Positions 15,292 through 37,262 are shown, numbered from the stretch's first letter. The stretch is 64,000 nucleotides of DNA from Betaproteobacteria bacterium (GCA_022340285.1 JAJDOG010000002.1:84881-148880), one strand, 5' to 3'. Program-made: numbers and translations. The notes: a model not told the origin generated them from the sequence alone.

Positions 15292-15931
15292 GATCGAGAA
15301 CGTCGACGTTTCGATCCAGGCAGTGCAGATCCTGCGCAGCGTCTCGTTCGAATTGCCCACCGGCAACATGGCCGGCCTGATCGGGCGCAACGGGGCCGGC
15401 AAGACCACTCTCATGAAGAGCATCATGGGGTTGCTCAAAGTGTCGAGCGGCATCGTCAAGTTCGACGACAGCGATCTGCTCGCGACGCCCATCCACATGC
15501 GCGCAAGAATGGGAATCGGATATATGCCGGAGGATCGGCGGCTGATTCCCGACCTCACCGTGGAGGAGAACCTGTTGCTGCCGGCTTGGGCGGCGAAGCT
15601 GCCCGATGCCGCCGCCCGCCTCGAGAAGGTGTATCACCTCATTCCGGAGATCCGCGGCTTTGCGCCGCGCAAGGGCCTGCAGATCTCGGGAGGTCAGCAG
15701 AAGCTGGTGGCGATCGGACGTGCGCTGATGTGCGGTGACAAGCTGCTCTTGCTCGACGAGCCCTTCGAGGGCGTGGCGCCGGCACTCGCGCACCGCCTGG
15801 TCGAGGTGGTGGGCAACCTCAAGAAGGAAGGCATGTCGATGATTCTCTCGGAATCGGACCTGCAGCATTCGGAGCGCATGGCGGATCGCGTCATCGTCAT
15901 CGATCGCGGCGTGGTCACCACGAGGAGTTGA
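15284..15931 (+). CDS. ABC transporter ATP-binding protein (LivF-like)
   Basis: ATG at 15284 (MLKIENV..). It has GRNGAGKTT, ISGGQQKLVAIGRAL and LLLDEPFEGVAP. Confidence 0.95.
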   Translation: MLKIENVDVSIQAVQILRSVSFELPTGNMAGLIGRNGAGKTTLMKSIMGLLKVSSGIVKFDDSDLLATPIHMRARMGIGYMPEDRRLIPDLTVEENLLLPAWAAKLPDAAARLEKVYHLIPEIRGFAPRKGLQISGGQQKLVAIGRALMCGDKLLLLDEPFEGVAPALAHRLVEVVGNLKKEGMSMILSESDLQHSERMADRVIVIDRGVVTTRS

Positions 15932-15936
15932 GAACC

Positions 15937-16251
15937 ATGATCGTCGAGGAGCGCATCTACACCCTGCAGCCGGGAAAGGTTCCGGAGATGGTCCGCCTGT
16001 ACGGCGAGGAAGGCCTTCCGCTCCAGCAGCGTCACCTGGGGAAATTCATCGGCTACTTCACGACCGAGAGCGGCAACCTGAACCAGGTCGTCTTCATGTG
16101 GGGCTTCGACAGTCTCGACGACCGGGCCGCGCGTCGCGCGCGCATGGCACAGGACCCCGAGTGGCAGCGCTATCTGGCGAGGGTCGTGCCGCTTCTCGTG
16201 AGCCAGGAAAACCGGATACTCACCCCTGCCTCTTTCTCGCCCATTCGATAG
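15937..16251 (+). CDS. NIPSNAP-family protein
   Basis: ATG at 15937 with AGGAG about 10 nt upstream. MIVEERIYTLQPGKVPEMVRLY..NQVVFMWGFDSLDDR is NIPSNAP-like. Confidence 0.75.
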   Translation: MIVEERIYTLQPGKVPEMVRLYGEEGLPLQQRHLGKFIGYFTTESGNLNQVVFMWGFDSLDDRAARRARMAQDPEWQRYLARVVPLLVSQENRILTPASFSPIR

Positions 16252-16282
16252 CTCGCGAACTGGCCAGGTTCTTCAGGCGAAA

Positions 16283-16343
16283 AGGCGGAACGTAACGTAC
16301 AGGAGGAAACCGGCTGGTTTCCTCCCGTAACCTTCCTTCCCGC
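16283..16343. repeat. Solo copy of the SD/anti-SD hairpin repeat (same family as the array at 37729..37890)
   Basis: GGAACGTAACGTACAGGAGGAAACCGGCTGGTTTCCTCCCGTAACCTTCCTTCCCG aligns with unit 3 of the 37.8-kb array. 10-bp stem GGAGGAAACC/GGTTTCCTCC. It lies between convergent genes. Confidence 0.8.
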
Positions 16344-16357
16344 TAAAGAACGCGCTT

Positions 16358-17173
16358 CTAGAGCACCGCGAGGCTCGCATTCTTCACGTCTGTGACGACC
16401 ATGTGGCCGGGGGTGTGCGTGATGCAGAGGGGCGGGCGGGCGTTGCGGACCACCGACTGCGGCGTGACACCGCAGGCCCAGAACACGGGAAGCTCGTCTT
16501 CGCGCACCTCGGTCGGGTCTCCCACCCAGGGGCGGTTGATGTCCTCGATGCCGATGAGCTCCGGCTTGCCGATATGCACCGGCGCGCCGTGCACGGTGGG
16601 GAAGCGAGTGGTGATCTGAACGGCCCGGATGGCGCCGGCGGGCGTGAACGGGCGCATCGAAACGACCATCTTGCCGTGAAAGCGCCCGGCCGGGGCCGTG
16701 TCGATATTGGTGAGGAACATCGGCACGTTCTTGCCCTGTTCGACATAGCGCAAGGGGAGACCTGCCTCCATCAGCGCCTCCTCGAACGAGAACGAACAGC
16801 CGAGCACGAAGGCGACGAGGTCGTCACGCCACAGATGCCGGATGTCGGTCACGTCCTCGACGAACTCACCGTCACGGAAGACCCGGTAGCGCGGCACGTC
16901 GGTGCGTATGTCGAAGTCCTCGGCGAGCGCGGGGAGACGCGGATCGCCCGGGTCCGTGGCGCCCAGCAGCGGACAGGGCCTCGGATTCCGCTGGCAGTAC
17001 ACGAAGAAGTCGTCGGCAAAGTCCCTGGGCAGGATGCAGACGTTTCCCTGCACGTACCCGGGCGCGAGTCCGGCCGTGTGCCCGGCGTGCGCACCGGTTC
17101 GCACCGCCCGGCGCACCGCACGCGGGTCACTGCGGTCGAAGGATGGGGTGGCGACGGCGCTTGCTATGGCCAT
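16358..17173 (-). CDS. Putative hydro-lyase, DUF1445/UPF0317 family
   Basis: ATG at 17173 gives 271 aa. ..[32 protein letters not shown].. and ..[10 protein letters not shown].. are typical of the UPF0317 family. Confidence 0.8.
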
Positions 17174-17304
17174 GAGCGGCTCCACGCGTGGACGAACGCA
17201 ATCTTGCGGCCGTGGGACGGCATCGTCAACCTGCGCCTCGCCCGCCGGGCAATCGGCGGGCAATCACGATGCCGTAGACTATCGGGCGTAAGGCTTCTTG
17301 AACG

Positions 17305-17856
17305 ATGGCGATCGAATCCATCCCGAATGACGACGCGACCGGCCTGATCCTGCGTGCGGTGGCGTTCGCTGCACACAAGCATCGCGATCAGCGGCGCAAG
17401 GACAAGCAGGCTTCACCGTATATCAACCATCCGATTTCGCTCGCGAAGGTGCTGTGGGAAGAGGGCGGAGTGCGCGACCCGGCCGTGATTGCAACCGCGT
17501 TGCTGCATGATACGCTCGAAGACACGGAGACGAGCTGGCAGGAGCTGCGAGGGGAGTTCGGTGACGAGATTGCGGACCTCGTCGCGGAGGTCAGCGACGT
17601 GAAGTGGTTGAAGAGCGATGCGCGCAAGCGCCTCCAGGTCTCGCGCGCGGCGCATTCCACCGACCGGGCGAAGCTCGTGAAGCTGGCGGACAAGATCTGC
17701 AATCTGCGCGATATGGCCGCACATCCGCCGCACGGGTGGTCGCTCGAGCGGCGGCGCAAGTATTTCGACTGGGCGAGCGAGGTGATCGACCAGCTGCGGG
17801 GGGTACACCCCGAGCTCGAGCGGCGCTTCGACGAAGTTTCCGTTCTGCGTCCTTAG
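17305..17856 (+). CDS. HD-domain (p)ppGpp hydrolase-like protein (Mesh1/small alarmone hydrolase type)
   Basis: 183 aa with AHKHRDQRRKD..PYINHP and the HD motif LLHDTLEDT. There is no synthetase domain. Confidence 0.8.
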   Translation: MAIESIPNDDATGLILRAVAFAAHKHRDQRRKDKQASPYINHPISLAKVLWEEGGVRDPAVIATALLHDTLEDTETSWQELRGEFGDEIADLVAEVSDVKWLKSDARKRLQVSRAAHSTDRAKLVKLADKICNLRDMAAHPPHGWSLERRRKYFDWASEVIDQLRGVHPELERRFDEVSVLRP

Positions 17857-17919
17857 GCCGGGGACGTAGAATCTGCACGAGCGAATCGCTCCGGTCGCTT
17901 CAAACAGGGAGGTACACGT

Positions 17920-18645
17920 ATGCGCTACGAATTTTACTACTGGCCCTCGATTCAGGGCCGCGGCGAATTCGTCCGACTGGCTCTGGAAGCAGGGGGCGCG
18001 GATTACATCGACATCGCGCGCATGCCGGGCAAGAGCCGCGGCATGACCGGGCTCATGCGCTATCTCGAGGGCAAGGGCGTGAAGCGGCCTCCGTTCGCGC
18101 CGCCGTACCTCAAGGCGGGGAAGCTGGTGATCGGGCAGTCTGCCAACATCCTGCTCTACCTCGGCCCGCGGCTCGGGCTCGCGCCCCGCGGCGAAGCCGA
18201 CCGGCTCTGGGTTCATCAGCTGCAGCTCACGATCGGCGATTTCGTCGACGAGGCGCACGACGTTCATCATCCCATCGGTGCCAACCTCTATTACGAGGAA
18301 CAGAAGCGCGAGGCGAAGCGGCGCGCCGAGGTTTTCATCCGCCTGCGGATCCCGAAGTTCCTTGGCTATTTCGAGCGGGTGCTCGAACGGAACCGGTCAA
18401 GCGGCGGGTTCATGGCGGGCGGGCGAATGACGTACGGGGATCTTTCGATGTTCCAGGTCATCGCCGGATTGCGCTACGCGTTCCCGCGCACGATGTCGCG
18501 CAGGGGCCATCGCTACCCGAAGCTGATGGCGCTCCACGATCGCGTCGCCGGGCGCTCGAGGGTGGCGGCCTATCTGCGTTCCGAGCGGCGCATCCCATTC
18601 AACGAGCACGGGTTGTTCAGACACTACCCCGAGCTCGACGGCTAG
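17920..18645 (+). CDS. Glutathione S-transferase family protein
   Basis: 241 aa. The N-terminal YYWPSIQGRGEFVRLALE is thioredoxin-like, followed by an alpha-helical C-domain. Confidence 0.75.
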   Translation: MRYEFYYWPSIQGRGEFVRLALEAGGADYIDIARMPGKSRGMTGLMRYLEGKGVKRPPFAPPYLKAGKLVIGQSANILLYLGPRLGLAPRGEADRLWVHQLQLTIGDFVDEAHDVHHPIGANLYYEEQKREAKRRAEVFIRLRIPKFLGYFERVLERNRSSGGFMAGGRMTYGDLSMFQVIAGLRYAFPRTMSRRGHRYPKLMALHDRVAGRSRVAAYLRSERRIPFNEHGLFRHYPELDG

Positions 18646-18793
18646 CGGCTGTGCGATTCGTCCTTTCCGGCCTGTGGGTTCCGGCGGCGCCGGAGGGGTC
18701 TGGGAAGGCAGGGGGCTTGCTGAATCGAGTCACCGCGACACTCGCGCCGCGTCCCTGAACGGTCTGCCCGCGCTCACTTTTGCGCCGCACAAC

Positions 18794-18825
18794 AAGTTGC
18801 CTTGCTTATCGTAAGCTAGGCAACT
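18794..18825. promoter_or_regulatory. Candidate MarR operator (perfect 8-bp inverted repeat)
   Basis: AGTTGCCT-N16-AGGCAACT lies 12 nt upstream of the marR ATG. Confidence 0.55.
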
Positions 18826-18836
18826 ATCTTTACGGG

Positions 18837-19334
18837 ATGTTCCGCGAGGATCTGTCCCGCAACTTCGGCTTCATCCTGAACGACGTGGCGCGCCTGTTGC
18901 GCACGAGCTTCGATCGGCGCGTAAAGGAGCTCGGGCTCACACGCTCGCAATGGTGGGTGCTCACGTTTCTCTTCCGCAACGATGGGGTGACCCAGTCCGA
19001 ACTCGCGGAGACGCTCGAGATCGAGAAGCCCACGCTCGGCAGGCTGATCGACCGTCTGGAAGCGAAGGGCTGGGTGCGGCGCGAGCCCGACGCCACGGAC
19101 CGGCGCGCGTGGCGCGTGCATCTCACCGACGAGATCGAGCCTGCGATGAAGACGATGCGCGCAATCGCCGCGGAGGTACGGCGCGACGCGCTGGCCGGCC
19201 TGAACGCCGCGGAGCGCGAGCGCTTCGTGGACATGCTGCTTGCGATCAAGACCAACCTATCGCGCCTGGAGAACGGCGCGGCGCGCAATGGTGTTGCCCG
19301 CAGTGGCACGCGCGCTAGAAAGCGGGGCGCATGA
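18837..19334 (+). CDS. MarR-family transcriptional regulator
   Basis: ATG at 18837. Winged helix-turn-helix LTRSQWWVLTFLFRNDGVTQSELAETLEIEKPTLGRLIDRLEAKGWVRR. Confidence 0.9.
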   Translation: MFREDLSRNFGFILNDVARLLRTSFDRRVKELGLTRSQWWVLTFLFRNDGVTQSELAETLEIEKPTLGRLIDRLEAKGWVRREPDATDRRAWRVHLTDEIEPAMKTMRAIAAEVRRDALAGLNAAERERFVDMLLAIKTNLSRLENGAARNGVARSGTRARKRGA

Positions 19335-20431
19335 GCGAGAAGCGTGTCCGGCGCATCATCTGGCCGCGACGCTTGGTGCGCGGCGTGCTGCTGGGGGTGG
19401 TGCCACTCGCGGCCGTGGCGGCCGGATTGCATTACTACGTGCTCGGTGGCCGTTACGAGGTGACCGAGAACGCTTACGTCAAGGCCAACATCATCGCCGT
19501 GAGCGCGGAGGTCGCGGGGCGAGTGGTCGAGGTCGCCGTACGCGACAATCAGCCGGTCGACGCTGGCGCACTCCTGTTCCGGTTGGATCCGACGCCATTC
19601 GAGCTCGAGGTGGCGCGGGCCGAGGCGCAGATGGCGGTGGTGCGCACCGAGCTTGAGGCGCTGCGCGCCTCGTACCGCGTGGCGCTGGCCGAGGCGGCGG
19701 AGGCGGAGTCGAGCATTGGCTTTCTCACCCGGCAGCTGGAGCGCCAGCGGATGCTGAAGGCGCGCGGCATGGGCCGCGAGGAAAGCTACGATGAAGCTCA
19801 ACACAACCTCGACGCCGCGCAACGCAAACTCGACAGCAGCCGGCAGCGCGCGCGAAGCGTGCTCGCGAGCCTGGGCGGTGAGGTGAGCCTTCCTCCCGAG
19901 CGGCATCCGCGCTACCTGCAAGCCATGGCGGCGCGCGATACCGCGCAAGTTGATCTCGCGCGCGCACGCGTCGTCGCGCCGGCGGGAGGCGTCGTGAGCA
20001 ACATGAAGCTGCAGGTCGGCGAGCACGTTGCGCGCGGCGTTCCGGTCTTCAGCCTGATCGAGAGCGGGCACGTCTGGGTCGAGGCGAACTACAAGGAGAC
20101 CCAGCTCACCTACATGCGTGAAGGGCAGCGCGCCACCGTTGCCGCGGACGCGTACCCGGGCAGCGAGTGGGAGGCGCGCGTCTCGGCGATCGCACCGGCG
20201 ACGGGGGCGGAGTTTGCGGTGCTGCCGCCGCAGAACGCCACCGGCAACTGGGTGAAGGTCGTGCAGCGTATCCCGGTCGTCATCCAGCTCGATCCCGTCG
20301 ACGGCGCGCCGCCGCTGCGTGCGGGCATGACGGTGAGCGTGAGCATCGATACCGGCCGTGAGCGCACTGTGTCGGGAAGCCTCCGCGAGCTCCTCGGACT
20401 TGCGCGCGCCGAGCCGGCAGTCGGGAAATGA
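19331..20431 (+). CDS. HlyD-family efflux membrane-fusion protein (EmrA-like)
   Basis: 366 aa with an N-terminal TM, a coiled-coil region and ..GNWVKVVQRIPVVI... ATGA overlap with marR. Confidence 0.9.
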   Translation: MSEKRVRRIIWPRRLVRGVLLGVVPLAAVAAGLHYYVLGGRYEVTENAYVKANIIAVSAEVAGRVVEVAVRDNQPVDAGALLFRLDPTPFELEVARAEAQMAVVRTELEALRASYRVALAEAAEAESSIGFLTRQLERQRMLKARGMGREESYDEAQHNLDAAQRKLDSSRQRARSVLASLGGEVSLPPERHPRYLQAMAARDTAQVDLARARVVAPAGGVVSNMKLQVGEHVARGVPVFSLIESGHVWVEANYKETQLTYMREGQRATVAADAYPGSEWEARVSAIAPATGAEFAVLPPQNATGNWVKVVQRIPVVIQLDPVDGAPPLRAGMTVSVSIDTGRERTVSGSLRELLGLARAEPAVGK

Positions 20432-24490: not shown

Positions 24491-27400
24491 TCAGTGAACC
24501 CCGTCGGGCAGGCGGATCCCTGTACCCTCGATGACGAGTGGTTGCTGCGGTCCCGGAGCGTCCCCGCCATCCGGCGGCAACGCACAGGGCAGCGATCCGA
24601 CGGGCGTCGCATAGGCGAACACGTCGTCTCTGCATCGCCTGATACGCTGCGCACGCACCGTCCCCACGGCATCGCCTTGACTGCTTGCCCCGACGTCGAA
24701 TGCCGAGGCATTGCCGGGTGCCTGCGCAAAGACGTAGTTGCCGTTGTTGGCGGCAAGGCCGGCGCCCCAGATCGGATACACGCCCGGTACGAAGGTGTTT
24801 TGCACCGTCGTGGAGAAAACTGCTGTCCCGGTCGTGGCGTTGCCCAGGTTGTCGGCACCCTTGAACCCAGTGACCGTGCCGGTGAAGGTCGGCAGCGGCG
24901 CGAGCGTCTGGACGGACACCGGGTCCGCGACGTACTGAAGCGTCGCCGGCGTGACCACGAAGTTGCTTCCGACGTACGTGACGATGTACTCGATTGCCGG
25001 GGCTACCGCTACCGTACCCTGGTTGATTGCGTACGCCCCGACGTTTTCGCCCGCAGCGCGCGCGAGAGCACCGGAAACCGTATCGCCGGGCACGATCGGA
25101 CTGCCGGTCGTCCCCGGTCCCCCCGTTATGGTGTAGGTGTAGGCCGCCGGATTCGGGTCGCCGTAGAGCTTGGTCTGCCCGGCATCGGCAGCGATGGTGA
25201 CGGGACGCGCAACGACGGTCAGCTGCCCGTTCACGTATGTGAACGTGTAACCGACGTCGGAAACGAGCGTGCCCGGGGCGACTGTGATGGGGTAGGGATT
25301 ACCGGTGACCGAGCTCGTCGCTGTCGCCGTGGTGCCGAGGCTGGGCGCGCCGCTGTAGGCATCTGCAGCCGTGTCGCCGTTCGCGAGCCCGGTGACCGTC
25401 GCGGTGAGTGTCGGAACCGGCTCGCCGTAGATCTTGTTCTGGTTGTCTGCCGTGACCGTGAGAGAAGGCTGGTAGCTGTAGATATTGTGGTTACCGGGCT
25501 CCGTGATCGTCGCCGGGGGATTCGCCGCGTACGTCCGGTTGTACAGGTTGGGTTTTGCGTTGCCAGGGACTGGAACGGTGCCGGTGTTCTGCGCCGGGCT
25601 GCGCGAATAGGTGAGCCAGCGGCCACCGGCAGAGATCGTCGCCGCGCCGTAGTTGAGGTCTTCGCCGCTGGCCACCACGACATCACCGCCCGTCGAGGCA
25701 ATGCTGTTCGCGAGCGTGATGTCGTGGCCCGCTCCGGGAGTGGTCACGACCGTTGCGTTGCCGGTCGTCGACACGCCGACCGTTGCGCCGACCGTTCCGA
25801 CGGTGAGCGCGCCGGAGTTGAGAAGATTCACCGAGCCGGTCGACGCGGCCAGGGTACCAATGGTGTTGCCTGCGTTGGTCAGCGTGTGAGTGCCGCCGGC
25901 GCCGAGCAGGACGAGATTCGTCGCCGTGATCGGCCCCGTCTGCGTCACCGTGCCGCCGGTGGCGAGCGTGAGCGTGCCGGCATCGTTACCGCCGGGCGCA
26001 GGCATCGTCGTCGTGCCGACCGAAATGTTGCTGGTTGCCCCGCGCAGCGTGGTGTCGGCGTTGTAGTTGTTGTACGTCCCGGTCGTTACCGCACCGGAAC
26101 CGTTTGCACGACCGATGATCAGCGAGTCGAATCCGTTCTGGATGTAGCCGAGCTCGGTTGTGGACAGGTTGAACTCTCCGGCGCCACCGGCGACACCGAC
26201 CGTCGATGCCGGATCGATGGGCTGAAGCGTGAGCTGGCCAGTACCCCGCATCGCTGTATTGGCCAGCACGATACTGTCGGCGCCCGTCACGGTGTCGGCG
26301 CTGATCGTGATATCGCCGCTGTGTCCCGCCGCGCCGATCAGCGTGCCCGAGCCGGTCGTGATCACCCCGGGTGCCGCGCCCGCGCCGGTGCCGGTGACCG
26401 CAATGGTGCCGCTGCCCGCTCCCGACGACGTCACCTGGGCGCTTGTGTTGAGGCGCACGCCGTAGTTGTTGTTGCCGGTGCCCGCACCCTGCCCGGTGAG
26501 CGCCACGTCTCCGGTAGCCGACTCGACGCGCGCGCGAGTGCCCGTGAAATAGGCCCCGTAATTGTTGTTGGTCCCAGCGCCCCCCGTTCCAGTGACCGTT
26601 ACATTGCCGCTGGTGCTCGCCACGCGCGCGTCGGTCCCGGTCACGTAGACGCCAAAGTTGTTGGTCGTCCCGGTTCCGCCGGTGCCGTTTACGGCGATGT
26701 CGCCGCTGGTGCTCGTGACCCGCGCGTTTCCACCGGTCAAGTAGACACCGTAGTTCTGGGCGCCGCCGGTCTGCGCCCCGGTGCCGGTAATGGCGATGTT
26801 CCCCGCGGCCGTCTCGACGCGGGTGTTCCCGCCGGTGATCACGACCCCGTAGGAGCGCGTGGTCCCGGTCCCCGCCGTGCCGCCGGTGCCCTGGATGCTC
26901 ACGGTGCCCGTGCCGGTGGTCGTGACCTTCGCATTGCCCCCGGCGAGATAGACGCCATGGGCGTTGCGATTGTTGCCGTTCGTCCCGTCGCCGCCGGTCC
27001 CCGCGACCGATATCGAACCGTCGACGCTCTGCACCGAGCTCGTGTTGTCCATGCGCACGCCGATGTTGTTCGTCCCAAGCCCTTGCGCTTGGCCGGTGAC
27101 CGTGACGTTGCCGGTCGTGGACGAAATCAGCGTGTTGTTGCTCTGGAGATAGACGCCGTAGTTGTTGTTCGTCCCGTTGCCACCGGTTCCCGTGACGCTT
27201 ACGGTGCCGGTGCCCGTCGCCTCGACGCGCGCCGCGTTCTGGAGGCGTACGCCGTAATTGGCCGCACCCGCCCCAGCACCTTGGCCTGTAACGCTGACGT
27301 TGCCGTCGCCGCTCGCGAAGCCTGCACCGCTGCCGCTGACGTAGACCCCGAAGTTGTTGTTGGTGCCCGCGCCGCCGGCGCCGGCCACTGTGACGTCGCC

Positions 27401-30400
27401 CGACGTCGATGTGGCGCGGACGCCGGTTCCGGTGAGGTAGGCGCCATAGTTGCTCGCCCCCGAGCCGTTCCCGGTGCCCGCTAGGGTGATGTCGCCGCTA
27501 CCCGTCTCGATCCGCGTGTTGTTCTGATCCATCTGGATGCCGCGGTTGTTGTTGCTGCCCGCACCCGCGGTCCCGGTGACCGAAACGGAGCCGGTGCCGG
27601 TGGCAGCGAGCTTGGCGTTACCGCCGCGCAGGTAGACGCCGTTGTTGCCGGTCGTGCCGGCCGCGCCGGTTCCCGTGATCGTGATCGTCCCGTCGACGGT
27701 CTCCACGGCGCTGGTGTTGTCCATGCGCACGCCCATATTGTTCGTCGCGCTGCCTTGCGCCTGGCCGGTGACGGTGATGCTTCCCGTCGTGGTCGCGATC
27801 CGGGTGTCGTTGCTCTGGAGCAAGACCCCGTAATTCGTGCTGGTCCCGTTTCCGCCCGTTCCCATCACGGCTACTGTGCCGGTGCCGGTCGCCTCGACCC
27901 GCGCCGCGTTCTGCATGCGTACGCCATAGTTCGCAGTGCCCGAGCCGGCACCCTGGCCTGTAACGCTGACATTGCCGTCGCCGCTCGCGAAGCCTGCACC
28001 GCTGCCGCTGACGTAGACCCCGAAGTTGTTGTTGGTGCCCGCGGCGCCGGTGCCGGTCACTGTGACGTCGCCCGACGTCGACGTAGCGCGGACGCCGGTT
28101 CCGGTGAGGTAGACGCCATAGTTGCTCGCCCCCGAGCCGTTCCCGGTGCCGATCAGGGTGACGGCGCCGCTACCCGTCTCGATCCGCGTGTTGTTCTGAT
28201 CCATCTGAATGCCGCGGTTGTTGTTCGTTCCTGCCCCGGCTACCCCGGTGACCGAAACCGAGCCGGTGCCGGTGGCAGCGAGCTTGGCGTTACCGCCGCG
28301 CAGGTAGACGCCGTTGTTGCCGGTCGTGCTGGCCGCGCCCGTCCCGCTGACGGTGATCGTGCCGTCGACGGTCTGTACCGAGCTTGTGGCGTCCATGCGT
28401 ACGCCCGAATTGTTCGTGCCAGTACCCTGTGCCTGCCCGGTGATCGAAATGTCGCCCGTCACGGACGCAATCTGCGCGGTGTTCTGTAGATAGACTCCGT
28501 GATTGTTGTTCGTTCCGGCACCGCCCGTACCCGATACCGTGATGGTGCCCGCGCCGGTCGTCTGGATGCGCGCCGCGTTCTGAAGCCAGACGCCATAGTT
28601 GCTGGCGCCACCGGTGCTCCGGCCCTGCCCGTTGACGATCACGTTTCCGCCGGCGGCGTCGATCGTCGCGTTGTTGAGCCGCACGCCATACGCCTGCGAG
28701 GTCGCGCCGCCGGTTGCGGCAGTCGTCGTCGGATCGGCTCCGCCGCCCAGCGTGACATTCCCTCCGTTGCTGAGAATGGAGGAGCCGTTGTTCAGCAGGA
28801 TGCTGCCTCCGTTCACGCCGTCGCTATCGCTATTCAGCGTGACGTCGAGTCGGCCCGAAGTCGAAGAGATGGAGACGTTGTTGTTCAAGGTGACCTGGTC
28901 GTGTCCGCGCAAAGTCAGCGCCGCGTCGCCTCCGGCGGTCTTGGCGATGCTTGCGGCTACCGTCAGGTCGCCGTTCTGCGCACCCGATCCGTCTCCGGTG
29001 GTGATGATCACGCTGGTGCCGGCGTCGAGCTTGCCCGCAATCTGACTTGCCTGGACCACCGCCGCGTTTCCGGTGGCATTCCAATCAGGCGCCGTATTCG
29101 TGTTGTTGTCGGTGTTGGCCGTCGCGGCGCCGCCGATCGTCAGGTTGTACGGATCGAGGAGCCACGTCCCGCCCCGGCCGTTCGGTGCGGCCGCCTCGAT
29201 CGTGGCGCCGTCCACGTCGAGATGCTTGCCTGAGGTCTCGACGAAACCGCCATCGCCGCCTTCGCTTGCTCCGTTGGCAGTCAGCTTTCCGTACACCTGC
29301 GCCGACGTATTGCCCCAGACCACGATCTTTCCGCCGTCGCCGCTCGCGATCGCATCGGCCGACACTTCCGCGCCTTGCGCGACGAAGGTGCGGTCGGCAT
29401 TCTGCACTCCTGGATTGCCGCCCTGCACGTCGCCGCCGATCAGCACCGTTCCACCCCGCGACTTGCCGGATGCATCGATACGAGCGCGAGGGAGCACGGC
29501 AACCTTGTCGCCGGTGATCTCGACACGCCCGCCGGATTCACCGGCTTCGCGGCCTGACGCGTCGAGCGTGCCGCTTACCGAAACAACTCCGCGCTCACCG
29601 CCCTCGAGACGGATGACGCCGTTCTTCATGCTGACGCTGCGCGCCTCGATGACGCCCTCGTTGTTGACGACGGTGTCGAGCAGCGCGTCGCGCGCCTTCG
29701 CCGTGAGGATGATCTGTCCGCCCTCGGCGCGGATGAGCTGCTTGTTGGCGGCGAGAGCGCCGACGGCATCGCGGTCGACGGCGATGGCGAGGAGCTTGTT
29801 GTCGGCGAGCGTGAGGGTGACTTGCTCTCCGGCTGCGAGCGCCGCCGTGCCGAGGGGCGCCGAGATGACCCCTTCGTTCGAAACACGCGGGGCGAGCAGC
29901 ACGACGTAGCCGCCTTCGGCCGCCTCGATGGTGCCCTGGTTGACAACCGAGCCGCCATCGCCGGAGAAACCGTAGCGACCCGCGAGGAAATCCGCATCCG
30001 ACAAGCTCAGGGTCGACGCGACGATGCCTCCGACGTTGACCTGGGCGCCCGGGCCGAACAGCACACCGTTCGGGTTGAGAAGAAGCACCTGACCGTTCGC
30101 CGACAGCCGGCCGAGAATCGCCGAAGGATCCTGACCCAGCACACGGTTTAGCGCGATCGCCGAGGCGCCCGGCTGCACGAACTGCACCGACTCGCCGGGA
30201 CCGATATTGAATTGCTGCCAGTTGATCGCGGCCTTCGACGTTGACTGGCGGATCGTCATCTGCGAGCCAGTGCTCGAGATCGCGGCGCTCCCGGCGGAGA
30301 TTTCCGCACCCGTCGGCATCGCGGCCGCTTGCCACGCTTGCGCCCAGCCGAATGCCAGCAGGACCGCTTGGGCGATCCGCCGGCGGACCGGAGCGTGCCT

Positions 30401-30424
30401 CAGCATCGCGCGCGTCGTCGTCAC
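24491..30424 (-). CDS. Two-partner secretion exoprotein (TpsA) with a TPS domain, about 24 x 32-aa N-[YF]-G-V repeats and three MBG-like C-terminal modules
   Basis: 1977 aa. TPS-domain motifs INWQQFNIG, ALNRVLG and LLLNPNGVLFG. GTG at 30424 lies 8 nt after GAGAGG. Confidence 0.9.
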   Translation of the reverse strand: MTTTRAMLRHAPVRRRIAQAVLLAFGWAQAWQAAAMPTGAEISAGSAAISSTGSQMTIRQSTSKAAINWQQFNIGPGESVQFVQPGASAIALNRVLGQDPSAILGRLSANGQVLLLNPNGVLFGPGAQVNVGGIVASTLSLSDADFLAGRYGFSGDGGSVVNQGTIEAAEGGYVVLLAPRVSNEGVISAPLGTAALAAGEQVTLTLADNKLLAIAVDRDAVGALAANKQLIRAEGGQIILTAKARDALLDTVVNNEGVIEARSVSMKNGVIRLEGGERGVVSVSGTLDASGREAGESGGRVEITGDKVAVLPRARIDASGKSRGGTVLIGGDVQGGNPGVQNADRTFVAQGAEVSADAIASGDGGKIVVWGNTSAQVYGKLTANGASEGGDGGFVETSGKHLDVDGATIEAAAPNGRGGTWLLDPYNLTIGGAATANTDNNTNTAPDWNATGNAAVVQASQIAGKLDAGTSVIITTGDGSGAQNGDLTVAASIAKTAGGDAALTLRGHDQVTLNNNVSISSTSGRLDVTLNSDSDGVNGGSILLNNGSSILSNGGNVTLGGGADPTTTAATGGATSQAYGVRLNNATIDAAGGNVIVNGQGRSTGGASNYGVWLQNAARIQTTGAGTITVSGTGGAGTNNNHGVYLQNTAQIASVTGDISITGQAQGTGTNNSGVRMDATSSVQTVDGTITVSGTGAASTTGNNGVYLRGGNAKLAATGTGSVSVTGVAGAGTNNNRGIQMDQNNTRIETGSGAVTLIGTGNGSGASNYGVYLTGTGVRATSTSGDVTVTGTGAAGTNNNFGVYVSGSGAGFASGDGNVSVTGQGAGSGTANYGVRMQNAARVEATGTGTVAVMGTGGNGTSTNYGVLLQSNDTRIATTTGSITVTGQAQGSATNNMGVRMDNTSAVETVDGTITITGTGAAGTTGNNGVYLRGGNAKLAATGTGSVSVTGTAGAGSNNNRGIQMDQNNTRIETGSGDITLAGTGNGSGASNYGAYLTGTGVRATSTSGDVTVAGAGGAGTNNNFGVYVSGSGAGFASGDGNVSVTGQGAGAGAANYGVRLQNAARVEATGTGTVSVTGTGGNGTNNNYGVYLQSNNTLISSTTGNVTVTGQAQGLGTNNIGVRMDNTSSVQSVDGSISVAGTGGDGTNGNNRNAHGVYLAGGNAKVTTTGTGTVSIQGTGGTAGTGTTRSYGVVITGGNTRVETAAGNIAITGTGAQTGGAQNYGVYLTGGNARVTSTSGDIAVNGTGGTGTTNNFGVYVTGTDARVASTSGNVTVTGTGGAGTNNNYGAYFTGTRARVESATGDVALTGQGAGTGNNNYGVRLNTSAQVTSSGAGSGTIAVTGTGAGAAPGVITTGSGTLIGAAGHSGDITISADTVTGADSIVLANTAMRGTGQLTLQPIDPASTVGVAGGAGEFNLSTTELGYIQNGFDSLIIGRANGSGAVTTGTYNNYNADTTLRGATSNISVGTTTMPAPGGNDAGTLTLATGGTVTQTGPITATNLVLLGAGGTHTLTNAGNTIGTLAASTGSVNLLNSGALTVGTVGATVGVSTTGNATVVTTPGAGHDITLANSIASTGGDVVVASGEDLNYGAATISAGGRWLTYSRSPAQNTGTVPVPGNAKPNLYNRTYAANPPATITEPGNHNIYSYQPSLTVTADNQNKIYGEPVPTLTATVTGLANGDTAADAYSGAPSLGTTATATSSVTGNPYPITVAPGTLVSDVGYTFTYVNGQLTVVARPVTIAADAGQTKLYGDPNPAAYTYTITGGPGTTGSPIVPGDTVSGALARAAGENVGAYAINQGTVAVAPAIEYIVTYVGSNFVVTPATLQYVADPVSVQTLAPLPTFTGTVTGFKGADNLGNATTGTAVFSTTVQNTFVPGVYPIWGAGLAANNGNYVFAQAPGNASAFDVGASSQGDAVGTVRAQRIRRCRDDVFAYATPVGSLPCALPPDGGDAPGPQQPLVIEGTGIRLPDGVH
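26980..28322 (-). repeat. Tandem direct duplication (2 x 672 bp = 2 x 7 protein repeats) inside tpsA
   Basis: 27301-27360 is base-for-base identical to 27973-28032. Flanking blocks differ at a few positions per 60 nt. Boundaries are approximate. Confidence 0.85.
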
Positions 30425-30560
30425 TTCCTGGGCCTCTCTGGGCTTCTGAGCACTGAATATATCAAAAACAATAGCTTATACAATATATTTAAAGTGACTT
30501 TACAGAAATATATGACGCAAAAGCCACGCCAGGGGACGCCTCATCAGATGCCGCCGAGCA
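30425..30560 (-). promoter_or_regulatory. AT-rich promoter/regulatory region upstream of tpsA
   Basis: CTGAATATATCAAAAACAATAGCTTATACAATATATTTAAAGTGACTTTACAGAAATATATGAC is a sharp AT island in an otherwise high-GC window. No specific -35/-10 pair is assigned. Confidence 0.5.
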
Positions 30561-34355: not shown

Positions 34356-35672
34356 CTAGAGGGTGAATCGCATCGCCGAGACGAGCATGCCTGGCAGCCG
34401 CGCACTACTCGTCGAGCGCTCGCCGTACGTGCCGGGGTCGGGAACGAACTCGCGCTCGGCCGTCAGCTCGACGAGATTCGCGCCGAGCATCCGGTAGAGC
34501 GTGTCGTCGAACCGCATCACGTTGACTGGCGCGACGATGCGCCCGCGCTCGACCCAGAATGTCGCGAATCGGGTCATACCGGTGATGCGCCCGGCCGGGC
34601 GATCGGAAAAGTTCGTGTACCAGAGGTTGCCGATATAAAGACCCGTGTCGAGCTCTGCGAGAACGTCGTGCGTTCCGAGCGCGCCGCCCGCCATATCGAG
34701 CGATTCCGGGCTTTCGCGGCCGTTCGCGGCATTGGTCTCGAGGCCGTACTCTTTCGCCGAGCGCGGCGACACCAGCGCGGCGCCGAGTCGGCCGGATTCG
34801 ACGAGTGTCACGGACGCTGGCTTCAAGTAGCCATCGCGCTGAAACGACGGCGCGATGCCATCCGCGGTGTTCTCGACCAGCGTCACCTTCGGCGACAAGC
34901 TTTCGCCATGTTCCATTCGCAGCAACGGGCCCTGCCGCGTCGCGCGCGCGCGGGCCGAGAATCCACCCCAGCCGAGGAGCCCCGCGAGCTCGTCGAGTGC
35001 GGACGGCGCGAGATAGGCGCGGTACTCGCCCGGTTCGATCGTGCGCGGGGCTGCTTCAAGCAGTGCGAGATTGCGAAGCGCTTCCGCTTGCTTCGCCTCG
35101 AACGTTGCGGGATCCCAGTCGAAGCCCGCGTGGTCGCACTTGACGGCTTTGTCGCTGTGCAGATGGAGGCTCCAGTCGAGATTGAAGCAGTCGACCGCGT
35201 GCCAGTTGCGCTGCCCGAACGAGTTGGCGAAGCCCCGCGAGATCGACCCGCCCGCGTAAAGCCCGACCAGATCGCGGCCATCGGATGCGGTGATGACCTG
35301 ATTCACCATCTCTTCTGCCGAAGGGAAGCTGCCCCGCCGCTCGTGAGTTGTCGATTCCGGATGCTCGGCGATGGCGAGCCATGGATCATCGGCGAAGTCG
35401 ACAAGCGTGTCACGCAGGCGCGTAACAGTCGTGCGCGCGAGCGCCTCGTCTTCGCCGTCGCCCGCGAGAGTGATCGTCGCGGCGGCCTGGCAACGATTGC
35501 GCACGAGCCGCAGGGTCAGGAATTGCTGCGCCACGCTGCCCGCCTGGCGCACCCGACCATGGTTGAATCGCACGAAGTCCGAGCGCTCGCCGGACAGCCA
35601 GAGCAGCAATGCCTCGTCGGTGTGCGTTTCCCGGGTCAACCGGTCGGCGAGAGAGAAGAACCGGTCTTTCAC
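34356..35672 (-). CDS. pmbA: PmbA/TldE-family metallopeptidase subunit
   Basis: GTG at 35672 overlaps the tldD stop (GTGA). 438 aa with ..GLYIGNLWYTNFSD.. and ..TGMTRFATFWVERG... Confidence 0.8.
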   Translation of the reverse strand: MKDRFFSLADRLTRETHTDEALLLWLSGERSDFVRFNHGRVRQAGSVAQQFLTLRLVRNRCQAAATITLAGDGEDEALARTTVTRLRDTLVDFADDPWLAIAEHPESTTHERRGSFPSAEEMVNQVITASDGRDLVGLYAGGSISRGFANSFGQRNWHAVDCFNLDWSLHLHSDKAVKCDHAGFDWDPATFEAKQAEALRNLALLEAAPRTIEPGEYRAYLAPSALDELAGLLGWGGFSARARATRQGPLLRMEHGESLSPKVTLVENTADGIAPSFQRDGYLKPASVTLVESGRLGAALVSPRSAKEYGLETNAANGRESPESLDMAGGALGTHDVLAELDTGLYIGNLWYTNFSDRPAGRITGMTRFATFWVERGRIVAPVNVMRFDDTLYRMLGANLVELTAEREFVPDPGTYGERSTSSARLPGMLVSAMRFTL

Positions 35673-37096
35673 GGCGCATCGCCCCCGAACACCGACACGC
35701 CGGCGAAGAGGCAAGGCGGCGATGCATGGCCGGTGTGGATACCCTGGTTGGGTTCGCCCTTGCCGCAGTAAAGCGTGCCGTGGATCTCGAACGTGCCGGG
35801 ATCGCCCACCATGCGCAGGCTCCGCCAGAAGGTGGCCGAAACGCCGCGATAGTTGGGATTCTTCACCACGCCCCGAATCCGGCCGTGCTCGATGAGCTCG
35901 CCCCACTCGCACCCGAACTGGAACTTGTTGCGCGAATCGTCGATCGACCATGACACGTTCGTGCGCATCAGCACGCCGCGCTCGATCGACGCGATCATGT
36001 CTTGCAGCGTGCTCTGGCCCGCCTCGACGTTCAGGTTCGCCATGCGGTCGATCGGCGGGCGATTCCAGCTGCTGGCGCGCGCGTTCGCCGTTCCTTCCAT
36101 GCCGGCCCGCAGCTGCGAGAAATGACCACCCAGCGGCCGCGCGAGAATGCCGTTGCGGATGAGCCAGGTTTTCTGCGCCGGGCTGCCCTCGTCATCGAAA
36201 GCGAACGTGGCGATCTCCGCGGGTAGCGATGGATCATAGGTCACGTTGAGCAGCTCGGATCCGTACTGGTAGGTGCCGAACATGCCGACCGTGACGAAGC
36301 TCGTGCCCGCATAGTTGCGTTCGTCGCCGAGGATGCGATCGAGCTCGAGCGGATGGCCGATCGACTCGTGGATCTGCAACATCATCTGATCGGGCATCAG
36401 CAGGAGGTCCATGGCGCCGGTCGGACAATTCGGTGCGCCGAGGAGTTGCAGGGCCTCATCCGCAAGGCGCGCGCCACAACCGATGAAGCCCGATCGCTCG
36501 ATCGCGTCGGGGCCGCCCTGCTGGGCGTGCTCGAAGCTGCGCGACTGGGTCTCGATGCCCCGATTCGCGACGACGCGCGCTTGGGGAACCGTGTACCGAA
36601 ACCGTTGCTGGACGTCGCCGCCGTGGCTGGTCAGGTAGAGATGCTCCACGTCGCGCCGATCGAGGCTCACTACGCGCTCGACGACGCGCGCATCGATGCT
36701 TGCGCCACGACACTCCTCGGCAAGGAGCTCGAGCAGCTCGCGGCGCGACCGAATCGGCTCGCTTGACGGATCCGGTCGGAACTCGCCGCGCGGTACAGGC
36801 ATGCGCCGCGGATCGAAGTGATGCACGCTCGCCGCACGCGTGACCTCGGCCCACATGCTGGCGCGATCGAGTGCCGCCTGCAGTCCGGCGCGTGAAAGAT
36901 CACTCGTCGCGCAATAGCCGTAGCCGCTCTCGGTGATGGCAGTGAGCATGGCACCGCGATCGATCGCGAGGCGCGGCGGCTCGGGGGCGTCCTGGCGCAC
37001 CGCGAGCGATTCCTGGGTCTCCGCCACGCCCCGGAGCGACCAGAAGGGCGCCGTGGAGCGTAGCTGGCGAAAGATGTCCCGGAGCGGATCGAGCAC
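35669..37096 (-). CDS. tldD: TldD-family metallopeptidase
   Basis: GTG at 37096 lies 6 nt after GAGGAGA. It has the HExxxH motif IHESIGHPLELD. The TTG at 37135 is an alternative start. Confidence 0.85.
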   Translation of the reverse strand: MLDPLRDIFRQLRSTAPFWSLRGVAETQESLAVRQDAPEPPRLAIDRGAMLTAITESGYGYCATSDLSRAGLQAALDRASMWAEVTRAASVHHFDPRRMPVPRGEFRPDPSSEPIRSRRELLELLAEECRGASIDARVVERVVSLDRRDVEHLYLTSHGGDVQQRFRYTVPQARVVANRGIETQSRSFEHAQQGGPDAIERSGFIGCGARLADEALQLLGAPNCPTGAMDLLLMPDQMMLQIHESIGHPLELDRILGDERNYAGTSFVTVGMFGTYQYGSELLNVTYDPSLPAEIATFAFDDEGSPAQKTWLIRNGILARPLGGHFSQLRAGMEGTANARASSWNRPPIDRMANLNVEAGQSTLQDMIASIERGVLMRTNVSWSIDDSRNKFQFGCEWGELIEHGRIRGVVKNPNYRGVSATFWRSLRMVGDPGTFEIHGTLYCGKGEPNQGIHTGHASPPCLFAGVSVFGGDAP

Positions 37097-37262
37097 GGAT
37101 TCTCCTCGATGGTGCCGGGCACGACGATAGCGCAACTGGCCGGCGGCGGCGGGGTTGAGTCAAAACGCCGTTTCCGATATAATTCAAAGCGTTGTGCCCC
37201 TCGGACGGGTGACACTGGCCGAGGGGCTTCGCTTTTTGAGACCCAACCATGGAGGTGCGCAG

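Follow-up and report, generated by a model that had tools for sequence, protein, structure and literature searches.

A regular 32-residue beta-helix turn without a Pfam-A or NCBIfam model in a two-partner secretion exoprotein, a probable fibrillar adhesin

What kind of protein is exported by a two-partner secretion (TPS) locus whose exoprotein consists, over much of its length, of one regularly repeated unit? The question is raised by tpsA, a gene for 1977 amino acids (aa) on the minus strand of a 64,000-nucleotide (nt) stretch of DNA from Betaproteobacteria bacterium, an uncultured organism of Burkholderiales type (GCA_022340285.1 JAJDOG010000002.1:84881-148880; the whole stretch is referred to below as the window), and by the adjoining tpsB. 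A first-pass annotation, made from the sequence alone, had interpreted the product of tpsA (TpsA) as an adhesin or fibre of beta-helical fold, in preference to a contact-dependent inhibition (CDI) toxin, and had left the family of its repeat open. The analysis reported here favours the reading of tpsA-tpsB as a type Vb two-gene operon for the export of a fibrillar, non-toxic surface protein, an adhesin being the likeliest kind (probability roughly 65%); the label "adhesin" is suggested by the architecture. The features of the locus are collated in Table 1.

The repeat array was delimited first by its units. Twenty-four were found at 26372-28693, in agreement with the roughly 24 units of about 32 aa that had been announced for about 26380-28700, and together they make up the central two-fifths of TpsA. 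The units are 31-36 aa long (exactly 32 aa in 15 of the 24) and carry the signature N-[YF]-G-V...G-x-[VI]-[TS]-[VI]-T-G-x-G within the fuller consensus N1-[YF]2-G3-V4-[YR]5-[LM]6-x(3-4)-A-[RK]-[VI]-x-[ST]-T-x-G-x-[VI]-[TS]-[VI]-T-G-[TQ]-G-x(2-3)-G-T-N-(N). Glycines 3, 21, and 27 are invariant, N1 is present in 21 and V4 in 20 of the 24 units, and most units have Tyr or Arg at position 5 and Arg or Lys at position 12, two positions that are presumably exposed at the surface. The third strand shows an alternating [VI]-[TS]-[VI]-T in nearly every unit.

Periodicity was assessed against 500 shuffles of the array, none of which exceeded a self-identity of 0.175 at any lag from 5 to 119. The self-identity of the array was 0.275 at lag 32 (0.120 +/- 0.011 in the shuffled sequences, z 13.8) and 0.487 at lag 224 (z 27.5, same shuffles). 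A super-repeat of seven units (224 aa), absent from the first-pass annotation, was recognized in the match of units 3-9 to units 10-16; at the DNA level it appears as 672-nt copies of 72-81% identity. The array is taken to be old and correctly assembled because its DNA copies have diverged (60-81% identity overall), and an assembly artefact within the repeat was rejected on the same ground.

The structure of residues 540-1400 was predicted with AlphaFold2 from an alignment of seven orthologues. The model obtained is all-beta and confident (predicted local distance difference test, pLDDT, 89.2; predicted template modelling score, pTM, 0.88). In each unit, three strands occupy positions of about 1-7, 11-15, and 20-26, and there is a Gly/Asn-rich corner. 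Since the model gives three strands per unit, one 32-residue unit is, as predicted, one turn of a three-sided right-handed beta-helix, which is the arrangement that the first-pass annotation had proposed to look for at residues of about 550-1350. In a Foldseek search of the PDB, the best match was EtpA of enterotoxigenic Escherichia coli (8vbb_A, E 7e-5, probability 0.99), and the remaining matches (pertactin, phage tailspikes, PL6 lyases, and AlgE epimerases) were right-handed parallel beta-helices throughout, each with E>0.04. With these matches, assignment of the array to the generic "pectin lyase fold" by structure-based models (SMART PbH1, Gene3D, SUPERFAMILY) is likely.

The weak matches include lyases, tailspikes, and epimerases of the same fold and thus bring up a beta-helical enzyme (polysaccharide lyase or hydrolase), while the alternation on the third strand brings up a surface protein that binds ice or minerals through ladders of Thr and Ser. 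Alternation resembling [VI]-[TS]-[VI]-T does occur in some ice-binding beta-helices. Both proposals are nevertheless very improbable: the Foldseek matches in question have low TM-scores in addition to E>0.04 and reflect the shared fold only, the array in the AlphaFold model is devoid of insertions or loops able to form an active site, Thr/Ser-rich faces are common in beta-helical adhesins (EtpA included), and nothing ties the source organism to ice.

The relation to EtpA is also evident from sequence. The TPS domain was matched by PF05860 over residues 37-278 (E 3.4e-40) and by TIGR01901 (NCBIfam, NPNG-type haemagglutinin N-terminal) over residues 67-141 (E 4e-25), and the motifs INWQQFNIG, ALNRVLG, and LLLNPNGVLFG, named at first pass, are all present; a putative Sec-type signal peptide, read by eye, would occupy residues 1 to about 35, just before this domain. 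With BLASTP, residues 9-605 of TpsA were aligned to residues 38-628 of EtpA (reference sequence from plasmid p948, L001) with 40% identity over 609 aa (E 1.5e-101), and the similarity stops at residue 605. When full-length TpsA was compared with the PDB sequences, EtpA (8vba/8cpk, E 7e-89) was followed by HMW1 (2odl, E 6e-47) and HxuA (4rm6, E 6e-40). The alignment to EtpA in that search reaches residue 1383; it is carried by the N-terminus, because the repeat region alone finds nothing in the PDB sequences (phmmer, no match at E<=1), and BLASTP agrees. Three features of a TPS exoprotein of the TpsA class were found: an NPNG-type TPS domain, an adjoining Omp85-family TpsB, and a cysteine-poor, beta-helical passenger.

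The repeat itself was then compared with the catalogued families. In the hmmscan of the whole 1977-aa protein, only the TPS domain and three MBG_2 domains were detected by Pfam, and the array was left uncovered by Pfam and NCBIfam alike. The array alone gave no relevant match with Pfam-A at E<=10 and none with NCBIfam at E<=1; in particular, none of the Fil_haemagg, Fil_haemagg_2, PATR, DUF5649, GLUG, and Beta_helix models matches it (Pfam, E<=10), and no Pfam or NCBIfam model covers the repeat of seven other proteins that bear the unit. In hhalign comparisons, the profile of the 32-residue unit was colinear, end to end, with the EtpA turn (P 0.001). Kinship of the unit with PATR was rejected (hhalign P 0.18, no relation). 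The unit can best be viewed as a turn of the EtpA type whose corner, rich in Gly and Asn, is about six residues longer, and not as a new fold. No repeat model of Pfam or NCBIfam was found over 26380-28700. The turn is not unique to TpsA; it recurs in about 1000 protein clusters.

This distribution was determined with a profile (A3; 32 positions, built from 134 diverse units) that was searched against 1.84 billion representative proteins. Matches were obtained in 1081 clusters at 1e-3, in 459 at 1e-10, and in 114 at 1e-30, with up to 52 units per protein, and they fall into several phyla. The 32-residue turn is without a model in Pfam-A or NCBIfam though widespread in bacteria. A homology search with the repeat only, followed by scoring with the unit model, placed the unit in TPS proteins of Cyanobacteria and Simkaniaceae; it was also found in non-TPS proteins of Planctomycetota, Verrucomicrobiota, and Bacteroidota that bear type IX secretion tails, dockerin, Calx-beta, HYR, or FG-GAP. 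The repeat-only search served as a source of distant carriers and not as a census: TpsA itself and its orthologues were not returned, and all matches were 1354 aa or shorter. The pre-filter of that search seems to disfavour long proteins.

From this spread a bolder reading can be drawn, according to which the units (N-x-G-[VI]...G-x-[VI]-[ST]-[VI]-x-G-x-G-G) form a distinct, uncatalogued repeat family, an exchangeable shaft cassette found in no fewer than five phyla on surface proteins whose export routes are unrelated (type Vb, type IX, dockerin-bearing, and others), with the regular Tyr/Arg and Thr ladders of TpsA serving as a multivalent binding face for a repetitive ligand, for example a polysaccharide, and not just as a spacer. 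It is considered rather unlikely as a whole. A common ligand for the whole repeat family is unlikely because the exposed positions vary across the family.

Exchange of the shaft is suggested by the relatives of TpsA. Full-length TpsA has 6374 relatives at E<=1e-5, mostly TPS+MBG or TPS+YDG proteins from metagenome-assembled genomes (MAGs) of Proteobacteria and Nitrospira. Eight are close orthologues (59-100% identity) from metagenomes or MAGs labelled Betaproteobacteria or Burkholderiales, with 14-25 units each; the locus syntenic with the window (L003) has 17 units and L004 has 20. None of the close orthologues belongs to an organism that has been cultured or characterised. In other members of the TPS+MBG family, DUF5649, PATR, or GLUG repeats stand at the position of the array. 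Two such proteins, P0008 (32-residue units) and P0010 (DUF5649) (72% identity over 534 aa by BLASTP), are near-identical over the first 350-400 residues or so and over the last 60, which correspond to residues of about 1-420 and 1913-1977 of TpsA, and their shafts are unrelated. Because the ends are near-identical while the shafts are unrelated, the comparison of these sequences suggests recombinational swapping of a central shaft cassette between tpsA genes.

The same observations bear on the role of the array, which could be a length-setting spacer only (a "periscope" shaft), the N-terminal region or the MBG domains being then responsible for binding. Variation in unit number among close orthologues (14-25), the unrelated DUF5649 shaft at the same position in a near-identical gene, and the lack of conservation of the exposed positions in the wider repeat family are as expected of a spacer; the stalk repeats of CdrA are reported to vary in number between strains likewise (bioRxiv 10.64898/2026.07.13.738186). 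The repeat region of EtpA, however, is required for binding of glycans (blood-group A glycans, PMC11463764), and the recurrent Tyr/Arg at position 5 and Arg/Lys at position 12 represent more order than a spacer needs. The spacer proposal is regarded as possible but somewhat doubtful; it is compatible with the explanation of TpsA as a fibrillar adhesin and differs from it just on the role of the array.

Past the array, an irregular, beta-strand-rich region leads to the C-terminal part. By eye, residues 1352-1605 resemble the DUF5649 repeats of paralogues (compared with P0010), with a score below the Pfam threshold. The junction that follows is common to the orthologues and to P0010, whose shaft is of the other type. 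The three MBG-like modules that had been noted at the C-terminus were recovered by Pfam as three stretches of MBG_2 (PF18676, E 4.2e-27). The only two cysteines of TpsA, C1931 (24632-24634) and C1947 (24584-24586), lie in the tail behind them, 16 residues apart and 46 and 30 residues before the C-terminus. Both are invariant in the eight orthologues and L004, and they are kept in relatives with a different shaft. By analogy with described systems, the cysteine pair is a plausible disulfide-loop anchor of the HMW1/HxuA/CdrA type: the C-terminus of HMW1 and of HxuA stays in the periplasm, where a disulfide-closed loop locks these proteins in their TpsB (PMC5422565), and CdrA is described as a TPS adhesin with MBG2-type repeats that a cysteine hook anchors in CdrB (PMC7616799; bioRxiv 10.64898/2026.07.13.738186; PMC11898600).

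The tail also holds a terminal motif, LVIEGTGIRLP (residues 1963-1974, window 24503-24538, minus strand). About 34 of the 120 best relatives, some of them lacking the cysteines, carry its general form, [LVI]-x-[VI]-x-[GD]-x-G-[IVLM]-[RKN]-L-P, at 3-35 residues from the C-terminus. LapG-regulated release of TpsA was considered and rejected, as no conserved di-alanine site is present: the position equivalent to the LapG site reads VAAS, VAAG, VVAT, or VGAS in the orthologues.

TpsA might instead be released as a soluble bridging lectin or adhesin in the manner of EtpA, with a cysteine pair that is unrelated to anchoring. EtpA is indeed both the nearest solved structure and the nearest relative of the N-terminal sequence, and the tail could not be linked by homology to any known anchor. 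EtpA, on the other hand, contains neither cysteine nor MBG domains and is served by the glycosyltransferase EtpC, whereas TpsA has MBG domains as well as the invariant cysteine pair, and the window yielded no EtpC homologue. The search for an EtpC/HMW1C-like glycosyltransferase consisted of a tblastn comparison of EtpC with the 64-kb window (best E 0.77) and inspection of the neighbour genes, among which there was none. Release in the manner of EtpA is judged unlikely.

A CdiA-like exoprotein for CDI, or another toxin-delivery exoprotein, would share the TPS domain and the TpsB partner with TpsA. This proposal is already contradicted and can hardly be credited: there is no VENN motif in the sequence of TpsA and no toxin or PT-VENN domain by Pfam (just a sub-threshold DUF7162, E 0.03, after the MBG domains), FHA-1/FHA-2 repeat matches are likewise lacking, and no small, immunity-like open reading frame (ORF) lies 3' of tpsA, where tpsB and then a convergent SDR gene are found instead. 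The absence of a VENN/pre-toxin motif and of an immunity ORF noted at first pass was thus upheld by the motif check, Pfam, and the gene neighbours, and the preference for a beta-helical adhesin or fibre over a CDI toxin gains support from the confident model, from Foldseek matches that are beta-helices only, and from the lack of a toxin domain.

For the preferred explanation, a tethered fibrillar adhesin, the following course can be proposed. Two-partner secretion begins with export of the exoprotein by Sec; the POTRA domains of TpsB then recognise the TPS domain, and the chain passes through the barrel and folds into a beta-helix outside the cell. TpsA would cross the inner membrane by Sec, dock with its TPS domain on the POTRA domains of TpsB, and thread through the barrel; outside the cell it would form a right-handed, three-sided beta-helix of which the first 600 residues or so are EtpA-like and are followed by 24 stacked turns. 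The length of the array may be tuned by gain and loss of whole units, as the 14-25 units of the orthologues would allow. With its repetitive face, the array may engage a repetitive ligand at many points at once, as the repeats of EtpA do with blood-group A glycans, or it may act mainly as a spacer. The MBG_2 domains would form a short proximal stalk, as in CdrA, and the disulfide-closed loop of the tail would be unable to pass the TpsB pore, so that TpsA is kept on the cell; reaching and binding would fall to the beta-helix, whose far end would be the N-terminal region.

Several points weigh against this explanation. The conserved, presumably exposed positions of TpsA (Y/R at 5, R/K at 12) are not kept across the wider repeat family. 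Searched on its own and as a profile of 23 sequences (E<=10), the tail gave chance matches among the PDB sequences and no TpsA chain, although the HxuA entry may omit the anchor; the tail profile found nothing at E<=1e-3 in a collection of 5.8 billion proteins, a database too large for so short a motif. For residues 1340-1977, AlphaFold gave a model too poor to use (pLDDT 43) from eight close orthologues. The tail contains neither AAG nor TAAG, the LapG-type site, whereas CdrA has a TAAG site. The C-terminus of TpsA is likened to HMW1 and CdrA by way of published descriptions, and all relatives in the orthologue group are metagenomic. Beta-helices usually rise by about 0.48 nm per turn; at this assumed rise, the 24 turns would make the array a rigid segment of about 11-12 nm.

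Table 1. Coordinates of the tpsA-tpsB locus and its parts in the 64,000-nt window (positions counted from its first nucleotide).
Feature	Residues	Window position	Strand	Basis or remark
tpsA		24491..30424	-	1977 aa; stop codon within coordinates
TPS secretion domain, NPNG motif	37-278	29591..30316	-	Pfam PF05860, TIGR01901
EtpA/HMW1/HxuA-like N-terminal secretion and beta-helix region	9-605	28610..30400	-	BLASTP, PDB sequence matches
Array of 24 units of about 32 aa	578-1351 (774 residues)	26372..28693	-	anchored on N-[YFH..]-G-[VIA]
Irregular, non-periodic, beta-strand-rich region	1352-1605	25610..26371	-	no Pfam match
Conserved junction (GGRWLTYS...PNLYNRTY...IYSYQP), helix to MBG	1600-1654	25463..25627	-	orthologues
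Three MBG_2 (YGX-type) domains	about 1655-1738, 1740-1826, 1827-1912	24689..25462	-	PF18676; boundaries from sequence
C-terminal tail	1913-1977 (65 residues)	24494..24688	-	proposed disulfide-loop anchor
tpsB, Omp85-family transporter	574 aa	22714..24438	-	Pfam POTRA_2 and ShlB/FhaC barrel
AT-rich stretch, candidate promoter/regulatory region		30440..30530	-	read from sequence, in the 222-nt gap 5' of tpsA

The gene structure is as described at first pass: the 1977-aa ORF exists at 24491-30424 on the minus strand, and the ShlB/FhaC-type gene 52 nt beyond its stop codon has the expected domains (PF08479, POTRA_2, E 4e-22; PF03865, ShlB, E 6e-17), in the order A-B on the same strand. The start of tpsA is ambiguous between GTG at 30424 and ATG at 30406, the latter being the choice of NCBI (1971 aa). 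The roughly 90 nt immediately 5' of the gene are A+T-rich in a window that otherwise has 64-68% G+C; they are probably a promoter or regulatory region, and a scan of the gap for the sigma-70 consensus gave no match. An antisense ORF of 996 aa inside tpsA (24494-27484, plus strand) is not a gene and is as expected because of the high G+C content and repetitive codon usage.

Farther 5', on the same strand, genes for a TRAP transporter DctM protein and a solute-binding protein are found, and beyond these TRAP genes two adjacent genes of PmbA/TldD-family metallopeptidases, called as overlapping (34356-37135, minus strand), which occur as the same pair in the syntenic L003 and are ordinary housekeeping context. 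On the 3' side of tpsB, genes for SDR, MFS, HlyD, and MarR proteins lie on the other strand, the convergent SDR gene at 7 nt from tpsB. Only the tpsA-tpsB pair is kept across three genomic contexts; it is also present in L002 and L003, and L004 has an ORF of about 587 aa at the position of tpsB. In L002 (the locus of P0005), tpsB is followed by a large gene (15762-19943, at least 1394 aa, running off the contig end) with no recorded domains, and an EAL-domain gene and a guanylate-cyclase/FHA gene stand on the 5' side (region L002:4441-7080); these flanking arrangements are kept neither in the window nor in L003.

The new findings are modest and comprise a regular 32-residue turn without a model in Pfam-A or NCBIfam, a super-repeat of seven turns, and signs of shaft exchange. 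The current understanding of two-partner secretion is unchanged by these findings. TPS+MBG exoproteins nevertheless occur in thousands in environmental Proteobacteria and Nitrospira, and to our knowledge CdrA is the only one studied so far. A unit model from alignment A3 would annotate the array and the matching parts of about 1000 protein clusters. As a clean, natural beta-helix with a fixed turn of 32 residues and a super-repeat of seven turns, the array could serve to examine the dependence of adhesin-shaft geometry on turn length and copy number, and the apparent exchange of shafts makes the modular evolution of type V passengers open to testing.

Among known systems, EtpA (PDB 8vba, 8vbb, 8cpk) is the best match to TpsA in both sequence and fold. 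Both are long, three-sided beta-helices in which a TPS domain is followed by tandem turns arranged in a super-repeat (224 aa in TpsA, 228 aa in EtpA), and in each EtpA module just one turn ('SSGVYLKDARITSTNGSITANGTATANG') conforms to the 32-residue unit model of TpsA. The turns of EtpA, however, comprise about 26 aa, nine to a module (PMC11463764; a lag of 26 was computed), and those of TpsA 32 aa, seven to a module; the EtpA modules are 98% identical to each other, whereas the TpsA modules have diverged. In addition to the differences in cysteines, MBG_2 domains, and glycosyltransferase given above, the gene order is B-A-C for EtpA and A-B for TpsA.

CdrA/CdrB of Pseudomonas aeruginosa resembles TpsA in that it is described as a TPS-secreted fibrillar protein, an adhesin, with MBG2-type domains and a C-terminal anchor that contains cysteine and sits in the TpsB pore (PMC7616799; bioRxiv 10.64898/2026.07.13.738186). 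Its stalk consists of many MBG-type domains with an ADEPT tip, whereas TpsA is mostly beta-helix with three MBG_2 domains. HMW1 and HxuA of Haemophilus influenzae have the same subtype of TPS domain as TpsA and are both described as tethered by a C-terminal disulfide loop in or under TpsB (PMC5422565); they have no detectable similarity to TpsA past residue 410 or so (PDB sequence search), and HMW1 needs the glycosyltransferase HMW1C, for which no counterpart was found in the TpsA window. TpsA resembles exoproteins of the FHA/CdiA type in its route of secretion and, broadly, in being built of beta-helical repeats; their repeat models do not match its array, and it has no toxin/immunity module. 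TpsA combines an EtpA/HMW1-like N-terminus with a CdrA-like C-terminus and belongs to a known kind of system, as a probable type Vb fibrillar adhesin.

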